Assembly (NCBI GenBank): GCA_963665665.1
Contig: OY762428.1
Span: 5,120,001-5,184,000 of the forward strand
Length of the DNA: 64,000 bases
Direction of reading: 5' to 3'
DNA from: Candidatus Kapaibacterium sp.
GTDB lineage: Bacteria; Bacteroidota; Ignavibacteria; Kapaibacteriales; UBA2268
Shown here: positions 4,029 through 62,608 of the stretch, piece after piece
Position numbering within the stretch: position 1 is the stretch's first letter
How the letters are laid out: every line of letters starts with the position of its first letter
Notes under the pieces: model-generated
Seen by the model: only the letters and a program-made list of their open reading frames with translations
What the model was told of the DNA's origin: nothing
Databases searched by the model: none
Program-made: the position numbers and the translations under genes

Positions 4029-5132
4029 TTACTGTTTCAATATCTTAGTTAGTTCAATAACTGCATTTGTTGCCGTCATGTCACCGTTAAGAACAGATTT
4101 TTCAATTCCGGGAGTGATATTTTTAATATGATCGGAATTATAAAACCAATTTCTTAGCGATTCTTCAACCATCGAGTAAACCCAGTCAAGCATCTGCTGT
4201 TTACGCCTGCTTTCGAAAATATCGTTTTCTTTAGTGAATGCAATAAATTCCTTCACTGTTTCCCAAATTTCAAAAACGCCCTTCTTTTCAATTGAAGAGC
4301 AGGTCTGGACTTTAGGAATCCATCCTTCCGTATAGGATTTCAGCAGGTGCAGGGCATTCCTGTATGAATCGGCAGTCATGTCAGCGTAGTACTTATTCTT
4401 TCCGTCGGCTTTATTCACAATCAAAGTATCAGAAAGCTCTACTGTTCCTTTCTTTATTCCCTGGAGTTCATCGCCACCACCCGGAAGAAGTACCAGCATA
4501 AACATATCAACCATAGAGCGTACCGTAGTTTCGCTCTGCCCGACTCCTACCGTTTCAATTAAAATAATATCATACCCGGCCGCTTCGCATACAAGGGCAG
4601 TTTCCCTTGTTTTCCTGGCAACACCGCCGAGAGTACCGCCGGAAGGAGAGGGGCGTATAAATGCATTCTTCTCGCGGGAAAGTATCTCCATCCTGGTTTT
4701 ATCACCGAGAATAGAGCCCCTGGAAAGTGTACTGCTCGGGTCAATTGCCAAAACAGCTACTTTATGGCCATCATCACAAAGGTATTTCCCCAGAGCTTCG
4801 ATAAAAGTGCTTTTGCCGGCACCCGGAGCGCCGGTTATCCCAATCCTGATTGATTTACCGGTGTGGGGGAGAAGCTCTTTAAGAACTTCCTGGGCCTTTT
4901 GTATATGTATATCGGAATTGCTTTCGACAAGGGTTATTGTCCTGGCAAGAACCGAGCGATCTGATTTCAGTACTCCGTCCACAAAATCTGATGTTTGTAA
5001 TTGCCTGCGTGCTGTTTTTATATTCGAACTGACTTTAACAACATCATTAATACCGGGCATAACGGAACTTGTAAATTCCTTTCCGTGCTCATCCGGTACC
5101 CATTCCGGTTTTTTATTTTTTTCCTTTGCCAT
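4029..5132 (-). CDS. meaB: Methylmalonyl-CoA mutase-associated GTPase MeaB (ArgK family)
   Basis: GAPGAGKST, IDPSS, GSILGDKTRM, ETVGVGQSE, NKAD motifs. Confidence 0.93.
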   Translation of the reverse strand: MAKEKNKKPEWVPDEHGKEFTSSVMPGINDVVKVSSNIKTARRQLQTSDFVDGVLKSDRSVLARTITLVESNSDIHIQKAQEVLKELLPHTGKSIRIGITGAPGAGKSTFIEALGKYLCDDGHKVAVLAIDPSSTLSRGSILGDKTRMEILSREKNAFIRPSPSGGTLGGVARKTRETALVCEAAGYDIILIETVGVGQSETTVRSMVDMFMLVLLPGGGDELQGIKKGTVELSDTLIVNKADGKNKYYADMTADSYRNALHLLKSYTEGWIPKVQTCSSIEKKGVFEIWETVKEFIAFTKENDIFESRRKQQMLDWVYSMVEESLRNWFYNSDHIKNITPGIEKSVLNGDMTATNAVIELTKILKQ

Positions 5133-22316: not shown

Positions 22317-23240
22317 TTATTTGTCCTTTTCATTCTTTATTTCTAGAATATCTTCGATGGATAAACCAGTAAGCCTTGATATTTCATCATCATTATAACC
22401 GCTGATGATCATAGTTTTAGCGATATTGATTTTGCTCTCGGTCATGCCTTTTTCTAATCCCTCTTTTCTACCCTCTTCTCTGCCTTCTTTTCTGCCCTCT
22501 TTTCTGCCCTCTACTCTACCTTGCCTTATTCCCTTCTCTATGGAATCAGATTTTATTGCTTTTTCAACTCTTACAGCATCCCAGTACCTGTCATAGACCT
22601 CAAGTTCATCCTTAGTGTAGCTGGATTCCTCAAGAATTTCAATAGCTTTCCTGATTTTATCATTTTCGGGAGATTCTTTAATTGCGGGGTTTTCATTATC
22701 AAATTCAGTCAGGAAACGCAGCCATAAAACAGCCATACGTTTTTCTGCAATTGTTTCGGGTTTAAATTTGGGAAGTTCTATAAAAACAAATTCCAAACCT
22801 TCTATTCTGTCTTCACTATTTTCAATATTCACAATTCTGTAATGATGGTAAAAATCAGTTTCATCAGGAAGATAATTGTCATTAACCAAATTCAGTGAAT
22901 ATACAGGGCACATTGATTTAAATTCTTTGCCTCTTTCCAATTGGCTGACATAAGCCTTTGATGCATTAAGCAACACTCTTACTTTAAAACTGTCCGTCCA
23001 GTGCATTTGCATTTCGATAATAAACTGTCGTCCGGAATTATCTATACACCGAACGTCAACTATTGAATTTTTTACTCCCGGTGTAATTGGGACTAACTCG
23101 GGTGACAAATACTCAAGACTTTCGATAAATTGGCCGTCATCGAAAGGCATTAGTGCGTTTAGAAAGCTAATTAGCAAATCAGGGTTTTCACCGAAAACCT
23201 TTTTGAAAGTCAGGTCGTTTTTTGGATCCAGGTAGCGCAT
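22317..23240 (-). CDS. Rpn family PD-(D/E)XK nuclease (putative transposase family)
   Basis: LDPKNDLTFKKVFG, SIVDVRC, IIEMQ, FIELPKF, EGRK repeats, C-terminal IAK.M...I..LTGL. Confidence 0.9.
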   Translation of the reverse strand: MRYLDPKNDLTFKKVFGENPDLLISFLNALMPFDDGQFIESLEYLSPELVPITPGVKNSIVDVRCIDNSGRQFIIEMQMHWTDSFKVRVLLNASKAYVSQLERGKEFKSMCPVYSLNLVNDNYLPDETDFYHHYRIVNIENSEDRIEGLEFVFIELPKFKPETIAEKRMAVLWLRFLTEFDNENPAIKESPENDKIRKAIEILEESSYTKDELEVYDRYWDAVRVEKAIKSDSIEKGIRQGRVEGRKEGRKEGREEGRKEGLEKGMTESKINIAKTMIISGYNDDEISRLTGLSIEDILEIKNEKDK

Positions 23241-31510: not shown

Positions 31511-32162
31511 GACTACTCTTTCATTTATTAAAAATATTGCTTCAATAATAGGAGTCATAGCATGGCTAAAAAGTTTCTTACAAATTCAGAAATAATTATT
31601 TTGAAATAAAATCAAAAACATAGAAGAGCAAGGTGCGGAAGCAAAGAAAGAAAACCACCCCGACTCGCTGCGCTCGCCACCCCTCAACGAGGGGAATTTT
31701 TATAAAATCAGCCATCCAGAAAGCGGCGTAGCCGCGACATTTTTGTAGAAAATCGATCCCGGGATTAACAACAGACCCGTCGGGGCGGCATTTATATATC
31801 AGATGTCGCTCCTACGGAGCTTTTTCCCTCCTTCCGAAGGAGGTGGCCGGGGGGAGGTAGGAAGGGTTAGAGGCAAATCACCGATGTTTGATGATATTTC
31901 CGCCCTGGCCGTAAGCAAAGCAAGAAAACCACCCCTATAATCCCCTCCTACATTAGGAGGGGATAAGAAGTTAAATATCATAGAATTAACTCCCCCTCCT
32001 TCCGAAGGAGGGGGCCGGGGGGAGGTAGGAAGGGGCGAAAGCAAAGCACCAAAGTTTTAACCTATTGCTGCCTTGTTCGGAATCATTGCCGCCTTGTTTG
32101 AAGATAATAAACTCTTGGTTGAAGCCATTGCAGCAATGTGTTGCTTTATTGCTGCCTTGGTT

Positions 32163-32309
32163 GGAGTCATTGATGCCTTGGTTGAAGTCATTGACGCCTT
32201 GGTCGGAGTCATTGACGCCTTGGTCGGAGTCATTGATGCCTTGGTCGGAGTCATTGATGCCTTGGTCGGAGTCATTGACGCCTTGGTCGAAGTCATTGAA
32301 CTCTTGGTC
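32163..32309 (-). repeat. 21-bp tandem array A (GRAGTCATTGAYGCCTTGGTY), 7 near-pure units
   Basis: Units start at 32163, 32184 ... 32289; degenerate in-phase units extend left to 31869. Confidence 0.95.
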
Positions 32310-32325
32310 GGAGGCAAAGAACATG

Positions 32326-32451
32326 TTCAGTAAGGTCAACCAAGTGTTCAGTAAGGTCAACCAAGTGTTCAGTAAGGTCAACCAAGTGTTCAATAAGGTC
32401 AACCAAGTGTTCAGTAAGGTCAACCAAGTGTTCAGAAAGGTCAACCAAGTG
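32326..32451 (+). repeat. 21-bp tandem array B (TTCAGTAAGGTCAACCAAGTG), 6 units
   Basis: Units at 32326 ... 32431; degenerate in-phase units extend to 32661. Confidence 0.95.
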
Positions 32452-33102
32452 TTCAATGAGGCCAAATTTCACTACATTAAGGCCAAACAGTAGTTCAATA
32501 ACTCCGGCCAAGGCAGTTTAAAGCCCTGCCAACAAAACATTTAGCCCAAACATTTGGATTCTGGTTCAAAACAGCGTTGAATTAAGGAAATTATTCGATT
32601 CATTGAAACCAGAAGATGGGGAATTAAGGCCGGCGGCCTGTTCATTGGGGTGGAAGAACGGGTAAACAGAGCAAAAGAATGAGGTATTATGTTGTCATTC
32701 TGACGGAGCGAAGCGACGGAAGAAACCATCTTTGTTTGCAGATAGTGTATGAAGAATCCACCCCGTCTCGCTGCGCTCGCCACCCCTCAACGAGGGGAAT
32801 TTTCCGGAAGTCCACCCCCGTCCTTCGGACACCCCCGCCAGCGGGGGACATTCCCATCCGTCATTCTGAACAAAGTGAAGAATCCATCTTTCTTTGCAGA
32901 TTAGGTATTAAGAATGGATTCTTCGCTGGCGCTCAGAATGACCTCCCCGACCATCGTCAAGTTCAATTGCCACGTGCTTTAGCTCGTGGATAAGGGCGCA
33001 AGGTTCGGAAGCAAGGAAAAGAATCCACCCCTGTAATTCCCTCCAAGGTAGGGGATGAAAACATCGCAGAATAGTAAATCCACGAGGATGGAAAATATCC
33101 GA

Positions 33103-57890: not shown

Positions 57891-58946
57891 ATGAATAAGG
57901 GGATAAAATCATACAGATGGATAATATTATCCGCACTTGTGTTTGTGGTTTTATTAAATTCCTGCACACAGTTGAGGAGCGTAAGGCATTATGCCGGCCC
58001 TTATGTTGTGAAGAAAGAGGCCGGAGGAGTGGAAATACCAACAGATGACGCGAAGGCAATTCAGGTAAACCCTGATGATCCGAAACTTAAACAGAACAGG
58101 GATATACTGGCAAAGCTTGAAGAATTTCGCGAAATGGCTGAAAAACAACAATCCGGGGAAGGCCTGAAACCCGAAGAGGGTCTGCTTGCAACAAGCGATA
58201 ACAGGCCCGTGAAATCGGTTCGCAGAAGGCTGCCGACCCTAAGGGAACAGATGAGGGAAATAGCCGACAAACAGGTTGCAATGGAATCAAGGCTGAATAA
58301 TATCGAAGGAGATATCAGCGATATAAGGGGAGATATTGCGTCAATTAACAGGAAACTTGACAATATTACAACCCGGGACGCAGGAGCTATTGCAGGCGTG
58401 CAGCAAAAAAGGGCAGAGAATCCGAATTATGCTTCCCAGACATTTTTCGATGACGAAGACATTATTCTTCCTGAAGAAATGGAAGAACCAAAAGCAAAAG
58501 CCAAACCGAAGAAAACTGTTAAAACTGATCAGGCTAAAATCCATGATGATCCGAAACCTGCTGCTAACACAAACCAGGAGCAACAAAAGGAAAAACTCGC
58601 GGCTATTGCTAAAAATGTAGAAAGTAAAGATTACAGCAATGCGCTGAATTCATTGAATAAACTTCTGAAAGAATCTGAAAACCCGACAATAATCGTTAAT
58701 TGTCATTACTGGATTGGCGAATCGTACTTCGGACTGGAACAATTCGAAGATGCAATTGAGCATTTCAAGATGGTTGTTGATTCAAAAATACCTGATAATA
58801 AACCGAAAGCCAGGATAATGATAGCGGAGTCTTTGATACGTACCGGAAAAGTTAAGGAAGCAAAGAAGGAATATTCCACGCTTATTGCAAATCATCCGTC
58901 AAGCGAATATGTTCCCGATGCAAGGAAAATGCTTCAGAAACTGTAA
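57891..58946 (+). CDS. CpoB/YbgF-like lipoprotein (coiled coil plus TPR)
   Basis: Lipobox LNSC; coiled coil; HYWIGESYF...F..VV...K.KA...HPSSEY. Confidence 0.75.
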   Translation: MNKGIKSYRWIILSALVFVVLLNSCTQLRSVRHYAGPYVVKKEAGGVEIPTDDAKAIQVNPDDPKLKQNRDILAKLEEFREMAEKQQSGEGLKPEEGLLATSDNRPVKSVRRRLPTLREQMREIADKQVAMESRLNNIEGDISDIRGDIASINRKLDNITTRDAGAIAGVQQKRAENPNYASQTFFDDEDIILPEEMEEPKAKAKPKKTVKTDQAKIHDDPKPAANTNQEQQKEKLAAIAKNVESKDYSNALNSLNKLLKESENPTIIVNCHYWIGESYFGLEQFEDAIEHFKMVVDSKIPDNKPKARIMIAESLIRTGKVKEAKKEYSTLIANHPSSEYVPDARKMLQKL

Positions 58947-58965
58947 TATATATCATTCAAAAATC

Positions 58966-59005
58966 AAAAGCCGATTCGGAGATATAAATTCGTATCGGTT
59001 TTTTT
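58966..59005 (+). terminator. Probable terminator after the CpoB-like gene
   Basis: AAAAGCCGAT...ATCGGTTTTTTT. Confidence 0.55.
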
Positions 59006-59497
59006 ATTTCCACTGTAATACCACCTTGTTCTAAAGCAAAGAAAGAAAACCACCCCCTTCCTTCGGACTCATCGGGGCCGGCGGAGGACAGCTAACGTTG
59101 TCATTCTGACCAAGCTTGCGACTGAAGAATCCATCTTTGTTTGCAGATAGTGTATGAAGAATCCACCCCGTCTCGCTGCGCTCGCCACCCCTCAACGAGG
59201 GGAATTTTTCCGGAAATCCACCCCGCCCTTATACTCGCATCTAAGCCCCTGCTTAGATGTGATGTTTTCTTTTTTTCCCAGTGGTATTTGCCTTCCCAAG
59301 CGGGGCTTGGGAAGGAGTATAAAATCAGCCATCCCGAAAGCGGCGTAGCCGCGACATTTTTGTAGAAAGGCGAATCCGGAAAGGACAACACCCCCGTCGG
59401 GGCGGCATTGGCAAAAGATTGTGTCGCTCCTACGGAGCTTTTTGAAATAATGACTGACAAAATATCTACAAAAATTCCGCTCCTACGGAGCTTTTTC

Positions 59498-60127
59498 CCT
59501 TCTTCCGAAGGATCTGGCCGGGGGTAGGTAGGAAGGGTCGGAAGCAAAGCACCAAAGTTTTAACTTATTGCTGCCCTATTCTTCTTCAAAGCCCTTCCCT
59601 TCGGGGAGGGTTTGGGAGGGGTCAGAAGCATTGCACCGATGGTTGAAGATAATGGCGCACTGACCAGAAGCAAAGAAAGAAAACCACCCCTGTATTCCCC
59701 TCCTACATTAGGAGGGGATAAGAAATTAAATATCATAGAATTAACTCCCCCTTCTTCCGAAGGATCTGGCCGGGGGTAGGTAGGAAGGGTCGGAAGCAAA
59801 GCACCAAAGTTTTAACTTATTGCTGCCCTATTCTTCTTCAAAGCCCTCCCCTTCGGGGAGGGTTTGGGAGGGGTCAGAAGCATTGCACCGATGGTTGAAG
59901 ATAATGGCGCACTGACCAGAAGCAAAGCAAGAAAACCACCCCTGTATTCCCCTCCTACTTTAGGAGGGGATAAGAAGTTAAATATCATAGAATTAACTCC
60001 CCCTCCTTCCGAAGGAGGGGGCCGGGGGGAGGTAGGAAGGGTCGAAAGCAAAGCACCGATTGTTTGGGATATTGGCGCACTATTCTTCTTCAAAGCCCTC
60101 CCCTTCGGGGAGGGTTTGGGAGGGGTC
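59498..60127. repeat. 252-bp tandem repeat (about 2.5 copies) of hairpin modules and 21-bp units
   Basis: TTCCGAAGGA at 59503, 59755 and 60007; GRAAGCAAAGCACC at 59540, 59792 and 60044. Confidence 0.93.
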
Positions 60128-60190
60128 AGAAGCAATGCAACGATGTTTGATGATAATGAACTCTTGGTTGAAGTTATTGCAGCATTGTTT

Positions 60191-60337
60191 TGCTTTATTG
60201 ATGCCTTGGTCGGAGTTATTGATGCCTTGGTCGGAGTTATTGATGCCTTGGTCGAAGTCATTGATGCCTTGGTCGGAGTTATTGATGCCTTGGTCGGAGT
60301 TATTGACGCCTTGGTTGAAGTCATTGACGCCTTGGTT
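60191..60337 (-). repeat. 21-bp tandem array A, 7 near-pure units
   Basis: GRAGTYATTGAYGCCTTGGTY units at 60191 ... 60317 (the first is degenerate at its 5' end). Confidence 0.95.
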
Positions 60338-60353
60338 GAAGTCATTGATTATA

Positions 60354-60773
60354 ATCAGTAAGGTCAACCAAGCTGTCAGTAAGGTCAACCAAGCTGTCAG
60401 TAAGGTCAACCAAGCTGTCAGTAAGGTCAACCAGGCTGTCAGTAAGGTCAACCAGGCTGTCAGTAAGGTCAACCAAGCTGTCAGTAAGGTCAACCAGGCT
60501 GTCAGTAAGGTCAACCAAGTGTTCAGTAAGATCAACCAAGTGTTCAGTAAGATCAACCAAGTGTTCAGTAAAGCCAACCAAGTGTTCAATAAGGTCAACC
60601 AAGTGTTCAGTAAAGCCAACCAAGTGTTCAATAAGGTCAACCAAGTGTTCAGTAAGATCAACCAAGTGTTCAGTAAAGCCAACCAAGTGTTCAATAAGGT
60701 CAACCAAGTGTTCAGTAAAGCCAACCAAGTGTTCAATAAGGTCAACCAAGTGTTCAGTAAGATCAACCAAGTG
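60354..60773 (+). repeat. 21-bp tandem array B, 20 units
   Basis: 420 bp of variants of TCAGTAAGGTCAACCAAG(CTG/TGT). Confidence 0.95.
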
Positions 60774-61459
60774 TTCAATGAGGCCAAATTTCACTACATT
60801 AAGGCCAAACAGTAGTTCAATACCACCGGCAAAGGCAGTTTAAAGCCCTGCCAACAAAGCGTTTAGCCCAAACATCAGGATTCTGGTTCAAAACAGCGTT
60901 GAATTAAGGAAATTATCCGGTTCATTGAAACCACAGGATAGGGAATTAAGTCCGGCGGCCTGTTCATTGGGGTGGAAGAACGGGGAGTAAGGGACAGTTG
61001 ACGTTGTCATTCCCCGACCAGTCACCGAAAAATCGGGAATTTGCCCACCGCCAGCGAGGAACATTCCCATCCGTCATTCTGACGGAGCGAAGCGACCGAA
61101 GAATCCATGCAAAATAGCAGATAATTTATGAAGAATGGATTCTTCGCTGGCGCTCAGAATGACATCCCAGCCTTATAATCGTCAAATTCAATTGCCACGT
61201 GCTTTAGCTCGTGGATAAAGTAGGCTAAGAAAAAGAATCCACCCCTGCCTGTCCCGACGTGTCGGGAACTCGCTGCGCTCGCCACCCCTCAACGAGGGGA
61301 ATTTTTCCGGAAATCCACCCCCGCCCTTCGGGCACCCCCGCCAGCGGGGGACAGGTGGCTTCTTCCAATTTTTAATTCTTAATTGTCAATTATCAATTAG
61401 GAACGAATTCTTCGCTGGCGTACAGGATGACAGCACTTCCGCCAGTGGGGAAGAGGGAA

Positions 61460-62608
61460 TTATACTTCTTCAATACTAACGTATTTGCCTTTTTCGCGCA
61501 GGCGACATGCTATCAGGCGGACTACGCGGTCGCGCTTTATAAGGCCCATCTGGCGAAATCGTATATTTGAATCGGCGGGATTAATGCCGCGTCCGAGTAT
61601 AAAATTAATCCGGTCGGAAGAATGAATGATATCGTAGAGCTTGGTAACGGGGTTGTCCTCGTCGAAAACTTCCCGGTCTTCGTCCAGCAGGTTGAAAAGC
61701 TGGTTCAGGGTCATAACTCCCTCGCACACAAGGTCTATACCATTAATTCGGCTTTCCGGCGGCGTCAGGTCGTCTGTGGCAATGCCCGTGTTTTGAATTT
61801 CGTTTCCTGTATACTCTGAAACGATCCGTGCGGTAGTGGCTCCGCAGATCACTTTCCTGCCGGGGCCGGCAAGGAATTTCTGAACGGTGAATTTGTCGTT
61901 GGACTGCCTTGCGGGCGGGCCCGTGAAGATATTTGTAATGTTTGCTTCCGTGGTTCTGACGGCAAGGATAGTATAGTCGTCCTGGTTTGTGCCCCCGCAT
62001 ATTTCCAGGGATTTTTTCCTGATCATTTTTACTAAGGACCTTTTGCTTGAACTTCCAAGCAGAGAAGTAAAAATGAAATCGTTAAGGCCTTCTTCGCCCC
62101 ATCCCAGAGGGTATCCCATTCCGAGGCCTGCCTGTGTTATGCCATCGCTCACACATAGCAGCCCCATACCGGAATCAAGCCATCCGTTAAATTCGGATGT
62201 TACTTTTTCTCCTATCGTTCTTGTTCTGCCTTTCAGAATTTTCGACTGATTAGAGTATAACAATATTGGCGAGGGCATATCATAGTTGAAGATGGAAAAA
62301 GATCCGTCGTTGAGTATCCGCATTATCATGAACACAGCGTAAGGCAGATTGTTTTCAACAGCGCTATTCATTGTTTCTGCTACTTTCCTGAAAGCTTTTC
62401 GCAGGTGGGTTCCGCCGCGGACAAGTTCTTTGAGCCTTGAAATGCAGAGCAGTGCCGCAATATTTGCTTTCACCCCCGAACCCAGCCCGTCAGCAATAAT
62501 TACCAATGTACCCTTGTCATCCCTGAGATAATCCCAGGCATCGCCGCAGGGCTGCCCCGGATACTTAGAGTCCTGCAGGCAGTCTATTTTGCAGTGAAGA
62601 TATCCCAT
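61460..62608 (-). CDS. SpoIIE/PP2C-type serine-threonine phosphatase (hydrogenase-sensor-associated type)
   Basis: CGDA, IADGLGSGVKANIAA, VSDGITQAGLG, DDYT, GPP....D, VICGATTA, EGVMTL. Confidence 0.88.
   Translation of the reverse strand: MGYLHCKIDCLQDSKYPGQPCGDAWDYLRDDKGTLVIIADGLGSGVKANIAALLCISRLKELVRGGTHLRKAFRKVAETMNSAVENNLPYAVFMIMRILNDGSFSIFNYDMPSPILLYSNQSKILKGRTRTIGEKVTSEFNGWLDSGMGLLCVSDGITQAGLGMGYPLGWGEEGLNDFIFTSLLGSSSKRSLVKMIRKKSLEICGGTNQDDYTILAVRTTEANITNIFTGPPARQSNDKFTVQKFLAGPGRKVICGATTARIVSEYTGNEIQNTGIATDDLTPPESRINGIDLVCEGVMTLNQLFNLLDEDREVFDEDNPVTKLYDIIHSSDRINFILGRGINPADSNIRFRQMGLIKRDRVVRLIACRLREKGKYVSIEEV

Follow-up and report, generated by a model that had tools for sequence, protein, structure and literature searches.

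The genome of Candidatus Kapaibacterium sp. (GCA_963665665.1) is a single contig of 5,458,198 bp (OY762428.1), of which we analysed positions 5120001-5184000, a stretch of 64,000 nucleotides that we call the window. Towards its right end lies a composite of 21-bp tandem repeats, termed here the lattice, which an original prediction had described as a giant imperfect palindrome radiating from a perfect dyad. The dyad itself is there: the 12-bp palindrome TGATTATAATCA is perfect, lies at 60346-60357, occurs once in the window (0.01 occurrences expected), and has about 9 A units to its left and 20 B units to its right, each of 21 bp. On the plus strand, the lattice starts with an outer left arm made of degenerate A-type units and GC-rich hairpin modules of 42 and 105 bp (59497..60158). 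The arm lies in in-register rows, its modules have 60-130 BLAST copies in the genome, and Tandem Repeats Finder (TRF) reports in it a higher-order repeat of 252 bp (12 x 21; 2.6 copies at 59497-60158, 93% matches). The A array follows (60163..60335, plus strand), with homogeneous units of the TCGGAGTTATTGATGCCTTGG type, for which TRF gives 7.4 copies at 60195-60349 and a 42-bp higher order repeated 4.5 times from 60163. A junction row of one unit, of type J3 (TTGAAGTCATTGATTATAATC; 60336..60356, no strand assigned), forms the dyad together with the next base. Beyond it stand, again on the plus strand, the B array (60357..60776), whose 20 units begin as AGTAAGGTCAACCAAGCTGTC and continue as ...GTGTTC variants (TRF: 60355-60777, 20.1 copies, 91% matches), and a right flank of about 10 degenerate B-type units (60777..60985).

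The A units are inverted relatives of the B units. Next to the axis, TCAGTAAGGTCAACCAAGCTG and the reverse complement of the left arm, TCAATGACTTCAACCAAGGCG, are identical at 15 of 21 positions (counted by eye), so that the predicted in-register inverted arms hold up in both the sequence and the TRF rows. The commonest A and B units across the genome have 12 of 21 positions in common, and an inverted-repeat search of the window returned arms of 47-58 nt that are 71-72% complementary. The units were also said to be homogeneous near the axis and to degenerate outward while keeping phase, which is the case and extends further than first claimed. A second copy, announced at a distance of 28 kb, is indeed present at about 32056-32663 and lacks the dyad. 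It comprises a left degenerate lattice with an A array (31831..32307, plus strand; TRF rows at 32064-32313, 21-bp rows), a junction row of type J1 that is not palindromic (TCGGAGGCAAAGAACATGTTC; 32308..32328, no strand assigned), and a B array of six units with the right flank (32329..32663, plus strand; TRF, and a BLAST match anchored at 5152458).

The genome holds many more copies than the two first supposed. The right flank (206 bp, 60780-60985), which is the best-conserved part of the family, has 53 BLAST matches in the 5.46-Mb genome, at 84.5-100% identity; 47 of these cover practically the whole flank and the other 6 cover part of it. The arrays go with the flank: A arrays occur at 54 loci, 51 of these near a flank copy, and all 35 B-array loci detected with BLAST are near one, while an array pair at 3.5288-3.5306 Mb stands without a recognisable flank. 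Among the strong tandem-repeat loci of the whole genome, 171 out of 224 have a period that is a multiple of 21. Once laid out from the flank in rows of 21 letters, every copy shows B rows and then A rows in one common register, and the elements span 1-2.5 kb each. From left to right, a copy consists of the outer left arm (decayed A units and modules), the A array, a junction unit or the spacer, the B array, and the B tail. We lean towards regarding the family as a lineage-restricted, non-coding, dispersed composite repeat of at least 53-54 copies. This number of copies excludes a single origin, centromere, or iteron locus.

The copies differ mostly in what joins the two arms and in the length of the arrays. 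Three one-unit junctions were found: J1 (TCGGAGGCAAAGAACATGTTC) in 26 copies, J2 (TTGAAGATAATGAG(T/C)AACCTC) in 9, and J3, which carries the dyad (...CATTGATTATAATC), in 4, a number confirmed by a separate count. In a further 12 copies, the spacer class, the arms are separated by a spacer of 567 bp, i.e., exactly 27 x 21 bp, which is 82% A+T and more than 90% conserved, with no indels; the junction of two copies was left unclassified. The number of units per copy ranges from 6 to 20 for B and from 4 to 29 for A, and B arrays have 11-13 units in 25 of the 39 class-I copies (median 12 units, or 252 bp). We compared the junction classes with a tree of the flanks and counted 20 label changes, the minimum being 4 and the average of shuffled labels 24.5. 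Values as low as the observed one arose in 1 of 200 shuffles, which indicates weak clustering by junction class, and the four J3 copies require 4 changes on the tree. The mixing of junction and array types across the flank tree suggests that parts have apparently been exchanged among copies. We infer that arrays would gain and lose whole units through slippage or unequal exchange, and that ectopic recombination would shuffle modules among copies. Two complete elements stand in direct tandem at 1775223-1777300, 1,396 bp apart and with identical flanks, as if the composite had recently been duplicated in its entirety.

A single 21-bp register had been predicted to run through both arms into the degenerate flanks, and both the rows and the lag tests bear this out. 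In the spacer, identity at lags of 21, 42, 63, and 84 averages 0.473, compared with 0.358 ± 0.010 after shuffling. At 21-bp lags, the right flank reaches 0.354-0.363 (0.25-0.26 expected) and the left modules 0.304 (0.250 ± 0.016). None of 1000 shuffles attained the observed value in any of these three tests. Random 190-bp pieces of the genome have themselves a mean excess of 0.024 at 21-bp lags (standard deviation 0.077), because 21 is a multiple of 3, so that the periodicity of the flank is clear relative to shuffles and modest relative to the genomic background. The GC-rich hairpin modules of the left arm are also whole multiples of 21 (42 and 105 bp). Since the register is kept along each copy, the differences in array length amount to whole units. 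The seemingly unique right flank is a decayed array of about 10 B-type units.

Such arrays are difficult to assemble, and the inverted arrangement could in principle have been produced by repeat mis-assembly. Short-read contigs do end at about 59142 and 61370, leaving a repeat block of 2.4 kb unbridged; their joints mix many copies. Against an artefact, the 53 copies have a consistent architecture in distinct unique contexts on one contig of 5.46 Mb. The dyad junction is identical in 4 copies and is crossed by an 86-nt contig of a public run, which covers 60287-60372 with 3 differing letters. The modules are present at 10-100 times the unique depth in a second sample from a different study, and related open reading frames (ORFs) occur on contigs of four other assemblies. 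The second sample and these assemblies show that the family is not confined to one assembly, and we give the artefact almost no credence.

The number of copies makes it possible to ask whether the dyad organises the element. It is found in 4 of the 53 copies as one of three one-unit junction variants, whereas 49 lack it and 12 have the 567-bp spacer in its place. If the element were driven by its palindrome, the arms would pair as a cruciform, a resolvase-type site, or a long hairpin RNA, or would have grown outward from the centre, all of which had been suggested. The perfect 12-bp dyad fits such a mechanism, and so does the folding of single-stranded DNA, which is stronger than in shuffled sequences for both window copies: -59.5 kcal/mol for 60163-60540 versus -38.3 ± 4.4 (z -4.8), and z -3.4 for the second copy. 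Yet the centroid structure of the latter is nearly unfolded (-3.5 kcal/mol), and the arms are just 57-72% complementary. The lengths of the two arms are uncorrelated (Spearman rho -0.03, p 0.85, n=39), and the A units are as complementary to the B units of their own copy (13.76/21) as to those of other copies (13.34/21). The lack of correlation between arms and the lack of preference for the own arm argue against a cruciform, a hairpin, or symmetric growth from the centre. Nor did we find a structured non-coding RNA: searches of Rfam gave a best E of 0.29 on 58900-61500 and no match for a spacer-class locus, and RNAalifold detected no conserved fold in 51 distinct flanks (-9.6 and -2.0 kcal/mol on the two strands). 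Promoters in the AT-rich spacer were considered as well, and the 12 sites found (7.5 ± 2.8 expected) are what its composition predicts. None of the palindrome-based proposals is a general property of the family. As a general mechanism, the palindrome is largely refuted already, and we regard it as very improbable. The perfect dyad is an incidental junction variant without general role.

The variation among units is informative on what may be selected in the arrays. Without any motif filter, we collected 663 B units, of which 194 are distinct, and 704 A units, of which 266 are distinct. In the B unit, 9 of the 21 positions are nearly invariant (A1, T3, A5, G7, A11, C13, A14, A15, and G16), and positions 9 and 17-20 are near saturation. 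Positions differ widely in their number of single-step changes, which lies between 0 and 29 (chi-square test, p 1e-24 in B units and 1e-42 in A units). The constraint on the A unit is the mirrored pattern of that on B, and the core CAAG/CTTG is kept in the inverted arm despite an A-B identity of 12-15/21. The conserved letters seem to form two blocks, their centres being separated by about 9.5 and 11.5 bp; with a spacing near one helical turn, these letters would align on one face of B-form DNA. Nine near-invariant positions in two blocks make a phased protein-binding platform our best functional guess: each unit would be a binding site, and the array would provide a one-faced docking track for an oligomerising, sequence-specific DNA-binding protein. 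We put the reading of the unit as a putative binding site and of the array as a docking track at about an even chance, or slightly less. A broader version, in which the approximately 54 lattices (about 1,400 units counted) would be genome-wide one-sided tracks for a lineage-specific polymerising protein, seems rather unlikely to us. The lattices would then be the bacterial counterpart of chromosome organisers of the satellite or heterochromatin-like kind, lying in gaps free of promoters; selection would act on the core of the unit, and the arrays would be renewed unit by whole unit. The original idea of a symmetric protein-polymer platform thus survives as a phased putative binding array, and loses both its dyad symmetry and the centromere or iteron locus.

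Several observations weigh against this reading. An all-against-all comparison of the 1,626 ORFs within 5 kb of the copies revealed no recurrent neighbour gene or partner, its sole clusters being ORFs inside repeats and one transposase of an insertion sequence (IS); the co-occurring gene family that we had been prompted to look for thus did not turn up near the copies. The array pattern, with 306 matches in the source genome, has none in 253 other genomes of the order, which was the check suggested for the architecture in related genomes. These are mostly fragmented metagenome-assembled genomes (MAGs) in which repeats may not assemble, so the pattern is to be taken as not found rather than as absent. 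Moreover, the unit pattern ART RAR GYN RAM CAA also fits a plus-strand heptad, [N/S][K/E][A/V][K/E/N/D]Q, and the remaining points come from this translation. Read in frame 0 of the plus strand, the B array gives [N/S][K/E][A/V][K/E/N/D]Q[V/A/D]x and ends in NEAKFHYIKAKQ* at the start of the flank; frame 2 of the A array gives VIDALVG/E, with a stop in the first B unit. Over distinct units, the ratio of nonsynonymous to synonymous change (pN/pS) is lowest in precisely these plus-strand frames, with 0.63 in frame 0 of B and 0.71 in frame 2 of A. Single-step variants are synonymous more often than the expected 0.27, with fractions of 0.35 in A frame 2 of the plus strand (p 0.0005) and 0.34 in B frame 0 (p 0.03). 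Finally, the stop of the upstream frame overlaps in J1 and J2 with an in-frame ATG, which in J1 is preceded by GGAGG at 8 nt.

The arrays might therefore encode small heptad-repeat (coiled-coil) proteins on the plus strand, the 21 bp being seven codons. An ORF-A (...VIDALVG/E...) would end at the junction, and an ORF-B, M-F-(SKVNQVF)n-NEAKFHYIKAKQ*, would start from the junction ATG that overlaps the stop of ORF-A. The constraint on the unit is compatible with heptads, since the pattern ART-RAR-GYN-RAM-CAA entails conservative K/E and A/V changes and the third position of GYN takes all four bases. B frame 0 matches coiled-coil families of Pfam (Alanine_zipper, 2.6e-11), and some of the frame-2 ORFs are filed as proteins in the record of the genome. 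However, the effects are far smaller than those of real genes, in the synonymous fraction as in the codon log-odds (B frame 0 scores -0.04 and A frame 2 scores +0.13, compared with +0.29 ± 0.11 for real genes and -0.45 for off-frames), and frame 1 of the minus strand of B has a comparable synonymous excess (p 0.018). Stop-free tandem arrays always give long ORFs, which makes openness uninformative: four of the six frames are open in 39-41 of the 41 class-I B blocks. Units with stops exist in every frame (20 of 208 in B frame 0 of the plus strand, 42 of 383 in A frame 2), and B frame 0 is interrupted in 2 of 41 class-I blocks and in 5 of the 12 spacer-class ones. No start codon is conserved in the consensus of the 12 spacer-class copies, the ordinary A unit (TCGGAG) already contains the GGAG of J1, and ORF-A must read through GC hairpin modules. 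The right flank contains four in-frame stops, and the substitutions among the 53 flanks have no codon periodicity (p 0.68). The 53 copies have neither a unique N-terminus nor an identified promoter.

Protein databases point in the same direction. Among 5.8 and 1.8 billion proteins, we found no homologues outside the family except low-complexity look-alikes, and the family ORFs that were recovered come from the record of this genome and from the contigs of the four other assemblies. One metagenome ORF, on a contig of 12.5 kb, reads (LVDLIEP)n, close to the LVDLIEH of the minus strand of the B array; the rest of this ORF resembles translated non-coding DNA, and the ORF may represent another family of 21-bp arrays in a GC-rich organism. 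ORFs on both strands are also a documented artefact of BOX elements, as far as excerpts of that work go. We consider the coding interpretation improbable, and the element very probably real and non-coding.

If the arrays are non-coding, they need not have a function. They could be selfish or neutral satellite-like DNA, tolerated in gaps between convergent genes; the positions would then be conserved because of mutation bias or of what the amplification machinery requires, and not for a host function. The genomic setting is in line with this. All 53 copies are intergenic, in gaps of 1.2-4.6 kb that are mosaics of repeat modules with 20-290 BLAST copies. Convergent genes flank 21 copies, tandem genes 26, and divergent genes 6, compared with 8.2, 36.6, and 8.2 expected from a crude ORF set (p 7e-6), i.e., copies are enriched in promoter-free gaps. 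Their placement is random: positions are compatible with a uniform spread (Kolmogorov-Smirnov p 0.94), and the coefficient of variation of the spacing is 0.90 (0.79-1.18 for random placement). The substitutions in the flank are evenly spread, modules are reshuffled among copies, and other repeat families and IS insertions are found together with the element. Its range is also very narrow: flank DNA was found in none of 40 relatives, two metagenome scans gave no match to the array motif, and a search of 185,579 species genomes gave just 2 short unrelated matches to the array pattern. On grounds of this kind, BOX, RUP, and SPRITE were judged parasitic (excerpts of PMC3049150). A functionless repeat is harder to reconcile with the 9 of 21 positions that are near-invariant in 194 distinct B units while others are saturated, with the CAAG/CTTG core kept in A, and with the clustering of B arrays at 11-13 units (25 of 39 copies). 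Neither an enzyme that could mobilise the element nor a terminal signature turned up, terminal inverted repeats (TIRs) and target site duplications (TSDs) not having been searched for. We rate selfish or neutral DNA as possible and somewhat doubtful. A Bacteroidetes MAG contig carries, at 4380-4620, an unrelated intergenic array of about nine 21-bp units (CAAATAAAGTRAAACAAGCAM) downstream of a gene, which most likely matched the degenerate pattern by chance.

We also looked for a link with replication, and found that the orientation of the element follows the leading strand in 31 of 53 copies (p 0.27), so this link was discarded; a seeming switch in orientation, noticed by eye, was given up as a post hoc observation. 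GC skew and gene-strand bias point to an origin near 1.73 Mb and to a terminus at around 4.75-5.1 Mb. The cumulative GC skew peaks at about 5.11 Mb and the gene-strand bias switches at about 4.73 Mb, which places the window close to where replication is inferred to end; of the two replichores, one measures about 3.2 Mb and the other about 2.3 Mb. In the window, the genes beside the first copy are unremarkable and encode a TPR protein, a SpoIIE-type phosphatase, and an Fe-hydrogenase-like PAS protein, and the gene beside the second copy encodes a Por_Secre_tail protein.

Other repeats surround the lattice. Its left end adjoins a cluster of REP-type hairpins (GCGGCGTAGCCGC, CCCGTCGGGGC, and two copies of GCTCCTACGGAGC; an inverted repeat at 59337..59494, plus strand), which belongs to a distinct repeat family. 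The same REP-like cluster, with TTTTTGTAG, is present in the window at both 59337-59494 and 31724-31830, and genome-wide it adjoins 18 of the 53 lattice copies, always in the same relative orientation. These hairpins also flank the sole clear Y1_Tnp gene of the genome (IS200-like, 153 aa), at 1821817, and gene and hairpins together look like a RAYT/REPIN system. To the right of the lattice, a mosaic of other hairpin modules (GTCATTC... / ...GAAGAATCCAT... / CCACGTGCTTTAGCTCGTGG ...) occupies 60986..61440 on the plus strand; these modules have 20-150 copies and, according to the alignment consensus and the right-end contexts, follow the flank in most copies of the element. High-copy hairpin modules at 59100-59215, 61075-61345, and 32690-32960 (GTCATTCTGAC...GAAGAATCCAT...ATGGATTCTTCGCTGGCGCTCAGAATGAC; CCACCCCTCAACGAGGGG; CCACGTGCTTTAGCTCGTGG) have about 70-150 BLAST copies each and follow the lattice flank in most copies, often after AAGGAGGTATTATG. 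A 12-bp tandem repeat at 22452-22520 of the window (CCCTCTTTTCTA, five copies) is unrelated to the lattice, and so are the repeats of an integrated plasmid fragment, with periods of 11 and 44 bp, to which a link was rejected.

The absence of transposase and cas genes, reported in the original prediction, applies to the neighbourhood of both window copies and not to the family, as an IS lies in or beside other copies. This IS, of 1,332 bp and with a transposase of 370 aa, has 7 copies with at least 98.9% identity and target duplications of about 11 bp (at 137769, 372488, 997182, 1347969, 2158432, 2211100, and 2484416, outside the window); our guess from its sequence is that it may be IS4-like. 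Five of the 7 insertions are in GC hairpin modules of the lattice, at CCCC-rich sites such as CCCCTTCGGGG and CCCCCCGCCCC, which looks like a target preference for CCCC-rich hairpin modules. The IS was considered as a mobiliser of the lattice and rejected, since it targets CCCC..GGGG hairpin modules with 11-bp duplications.

The statement that no described element has this layout proved too strong. We found no description of the exact layout in the literature that we searched, and two types of elements are close in kind while differing in scale and unit. The first is BOX of Streptococcus pneumoniae and S. suis, which excerpts of Croucher et al. 2011 (PMC3049150) describe as boxA-boxB(n)-boxC, i.e., conserved ends around a variable tandem array. 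Large BOX copies have open frames on both strands without homologues and were judged non-coding, according to the same excerpts. As far as they allow a comparison, BOX and the lattice are both dispersed, intergenic, and modular, with conserved end modules and a variable number of units. Both cluster with other repeat families with mutual insertion, both yield ORFs on both strands without homologues, and both are regarded as non-coding DNA that may influence genes nearby. The lattice shares with BOX-type elements its 53 dispersed intergenic copies with conserved ends and its variable internal tandem module. Compared by description, they differ in that BOX has one array of 45-bp boxB units, measures 67-637 bp, and carries TIRs and TSDs, whereas the lattice has two opposed 21-bp arrays with decayed arms in one register. 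At 1-2.5 kb, and with its ends buried in other repeat modules, it also exceeds the size of BOX (less than about 650 bp).

The second type comprises paired tandem-repeat sites. Excerpts of Aklujkar et al. 2009 (PMC2700814) describe multicopy intergenic sites of classes 1-3 in Geobacter metallireducens, proposed to bind the global DNA-binding proteins IHF/HU, and excerpts of Rehm et al. 2015 (PMC4692102) describe GGGAATC-type heptamer repeats in Xanthomonas and Nostoc, those of Xanthomonas being under-represented between divergent ORFs. As portrayed there, these sites resemble the lattice in being multicopy, intergenic, and made of short tandem units, mostly paired on opposite strands. Their units are of 7-9 nt in 3-5 (up to 26) copies, compared with 21 bp and 6-29 units per arm in the lattice, which has no visible 7-bp substructure and has conserved decayed flanks and inserted hairpin modules.

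With REP, BIME, and REPIN elements and their RAYT (Y1) transposases, the lattice shares the high-copy extragenic mosaics, in the portions of PMC2817692 and PMC3333891 that describe them. The REP-type context is here the one clear Y1_Tnp gene flanked by GTAG-type hairpins and the cluster that adjoins 18 of the 53 copies. We rejected membership of the lattice in this group, because the hairpins that flank the Y1_Tnp gene are different and only lie beside the lattice. The 21-bp units of the lattice do not have the form of short GC hairpins that carry GTAG at the 5' end, and they are in tandem instead of forming alternating REP pairs. We found nothing that ties the Y1 enzyme to the lattice itself.

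Plasmid iterons and partition centromeres, such as P1 incC/incA, F sopC, R1 parC-ParR, and pSK41, are phased repeats of 11-22 bp (43 bp in sopC) along one face of which a small DNA-binding protein polymerises; in some of them, opposed arrays enclose a promoter or an AT-rich stretch. They occupy one or two loci per replicon, beside their own rep or par gene. The lattice resembles them in its phased 21-bp repeats and, in 12 copies, in the 567-bp spacer with 82% A+T, but it occupies 53-54 chromosomal loci without a recurrent neighbour gene. An iteron-type origin was rejected because it would be a single locus beside a rep gene and the origin is near 1.73 Mb; a partition centromere was rejected because the 53 loci are uniformly spread and have no recurrent neighbour. 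The lattice is not a CRISPR array either, as its units are head-to-tail without spacers. In kind, it is a BOX-like modular interspersed repeat with opposed arms like those of the Geobacter sites, in a REP-rich mosaic. It differs from these in the 21-bp unit, the kilobase scale, the single register throughout, and the satellite-like gradient of decay from core to edge.

In practical terms, such arrays give long spurious ORFs on both strands, some of them already filed as proteins, and they break short-read assemblies. If the lattice is selfish, then a bacterial chromosome can carry kilobase arrays with features like those of eukaryotes, in which cores of homogeneous units give way to decayed edges, higher-order periods occur, and loci exchange parts. 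If the arrays are docking tracks, the approximately 54 natural phased lattices of variable length would provide a system for asking how bacteria use satellite-like DNA.

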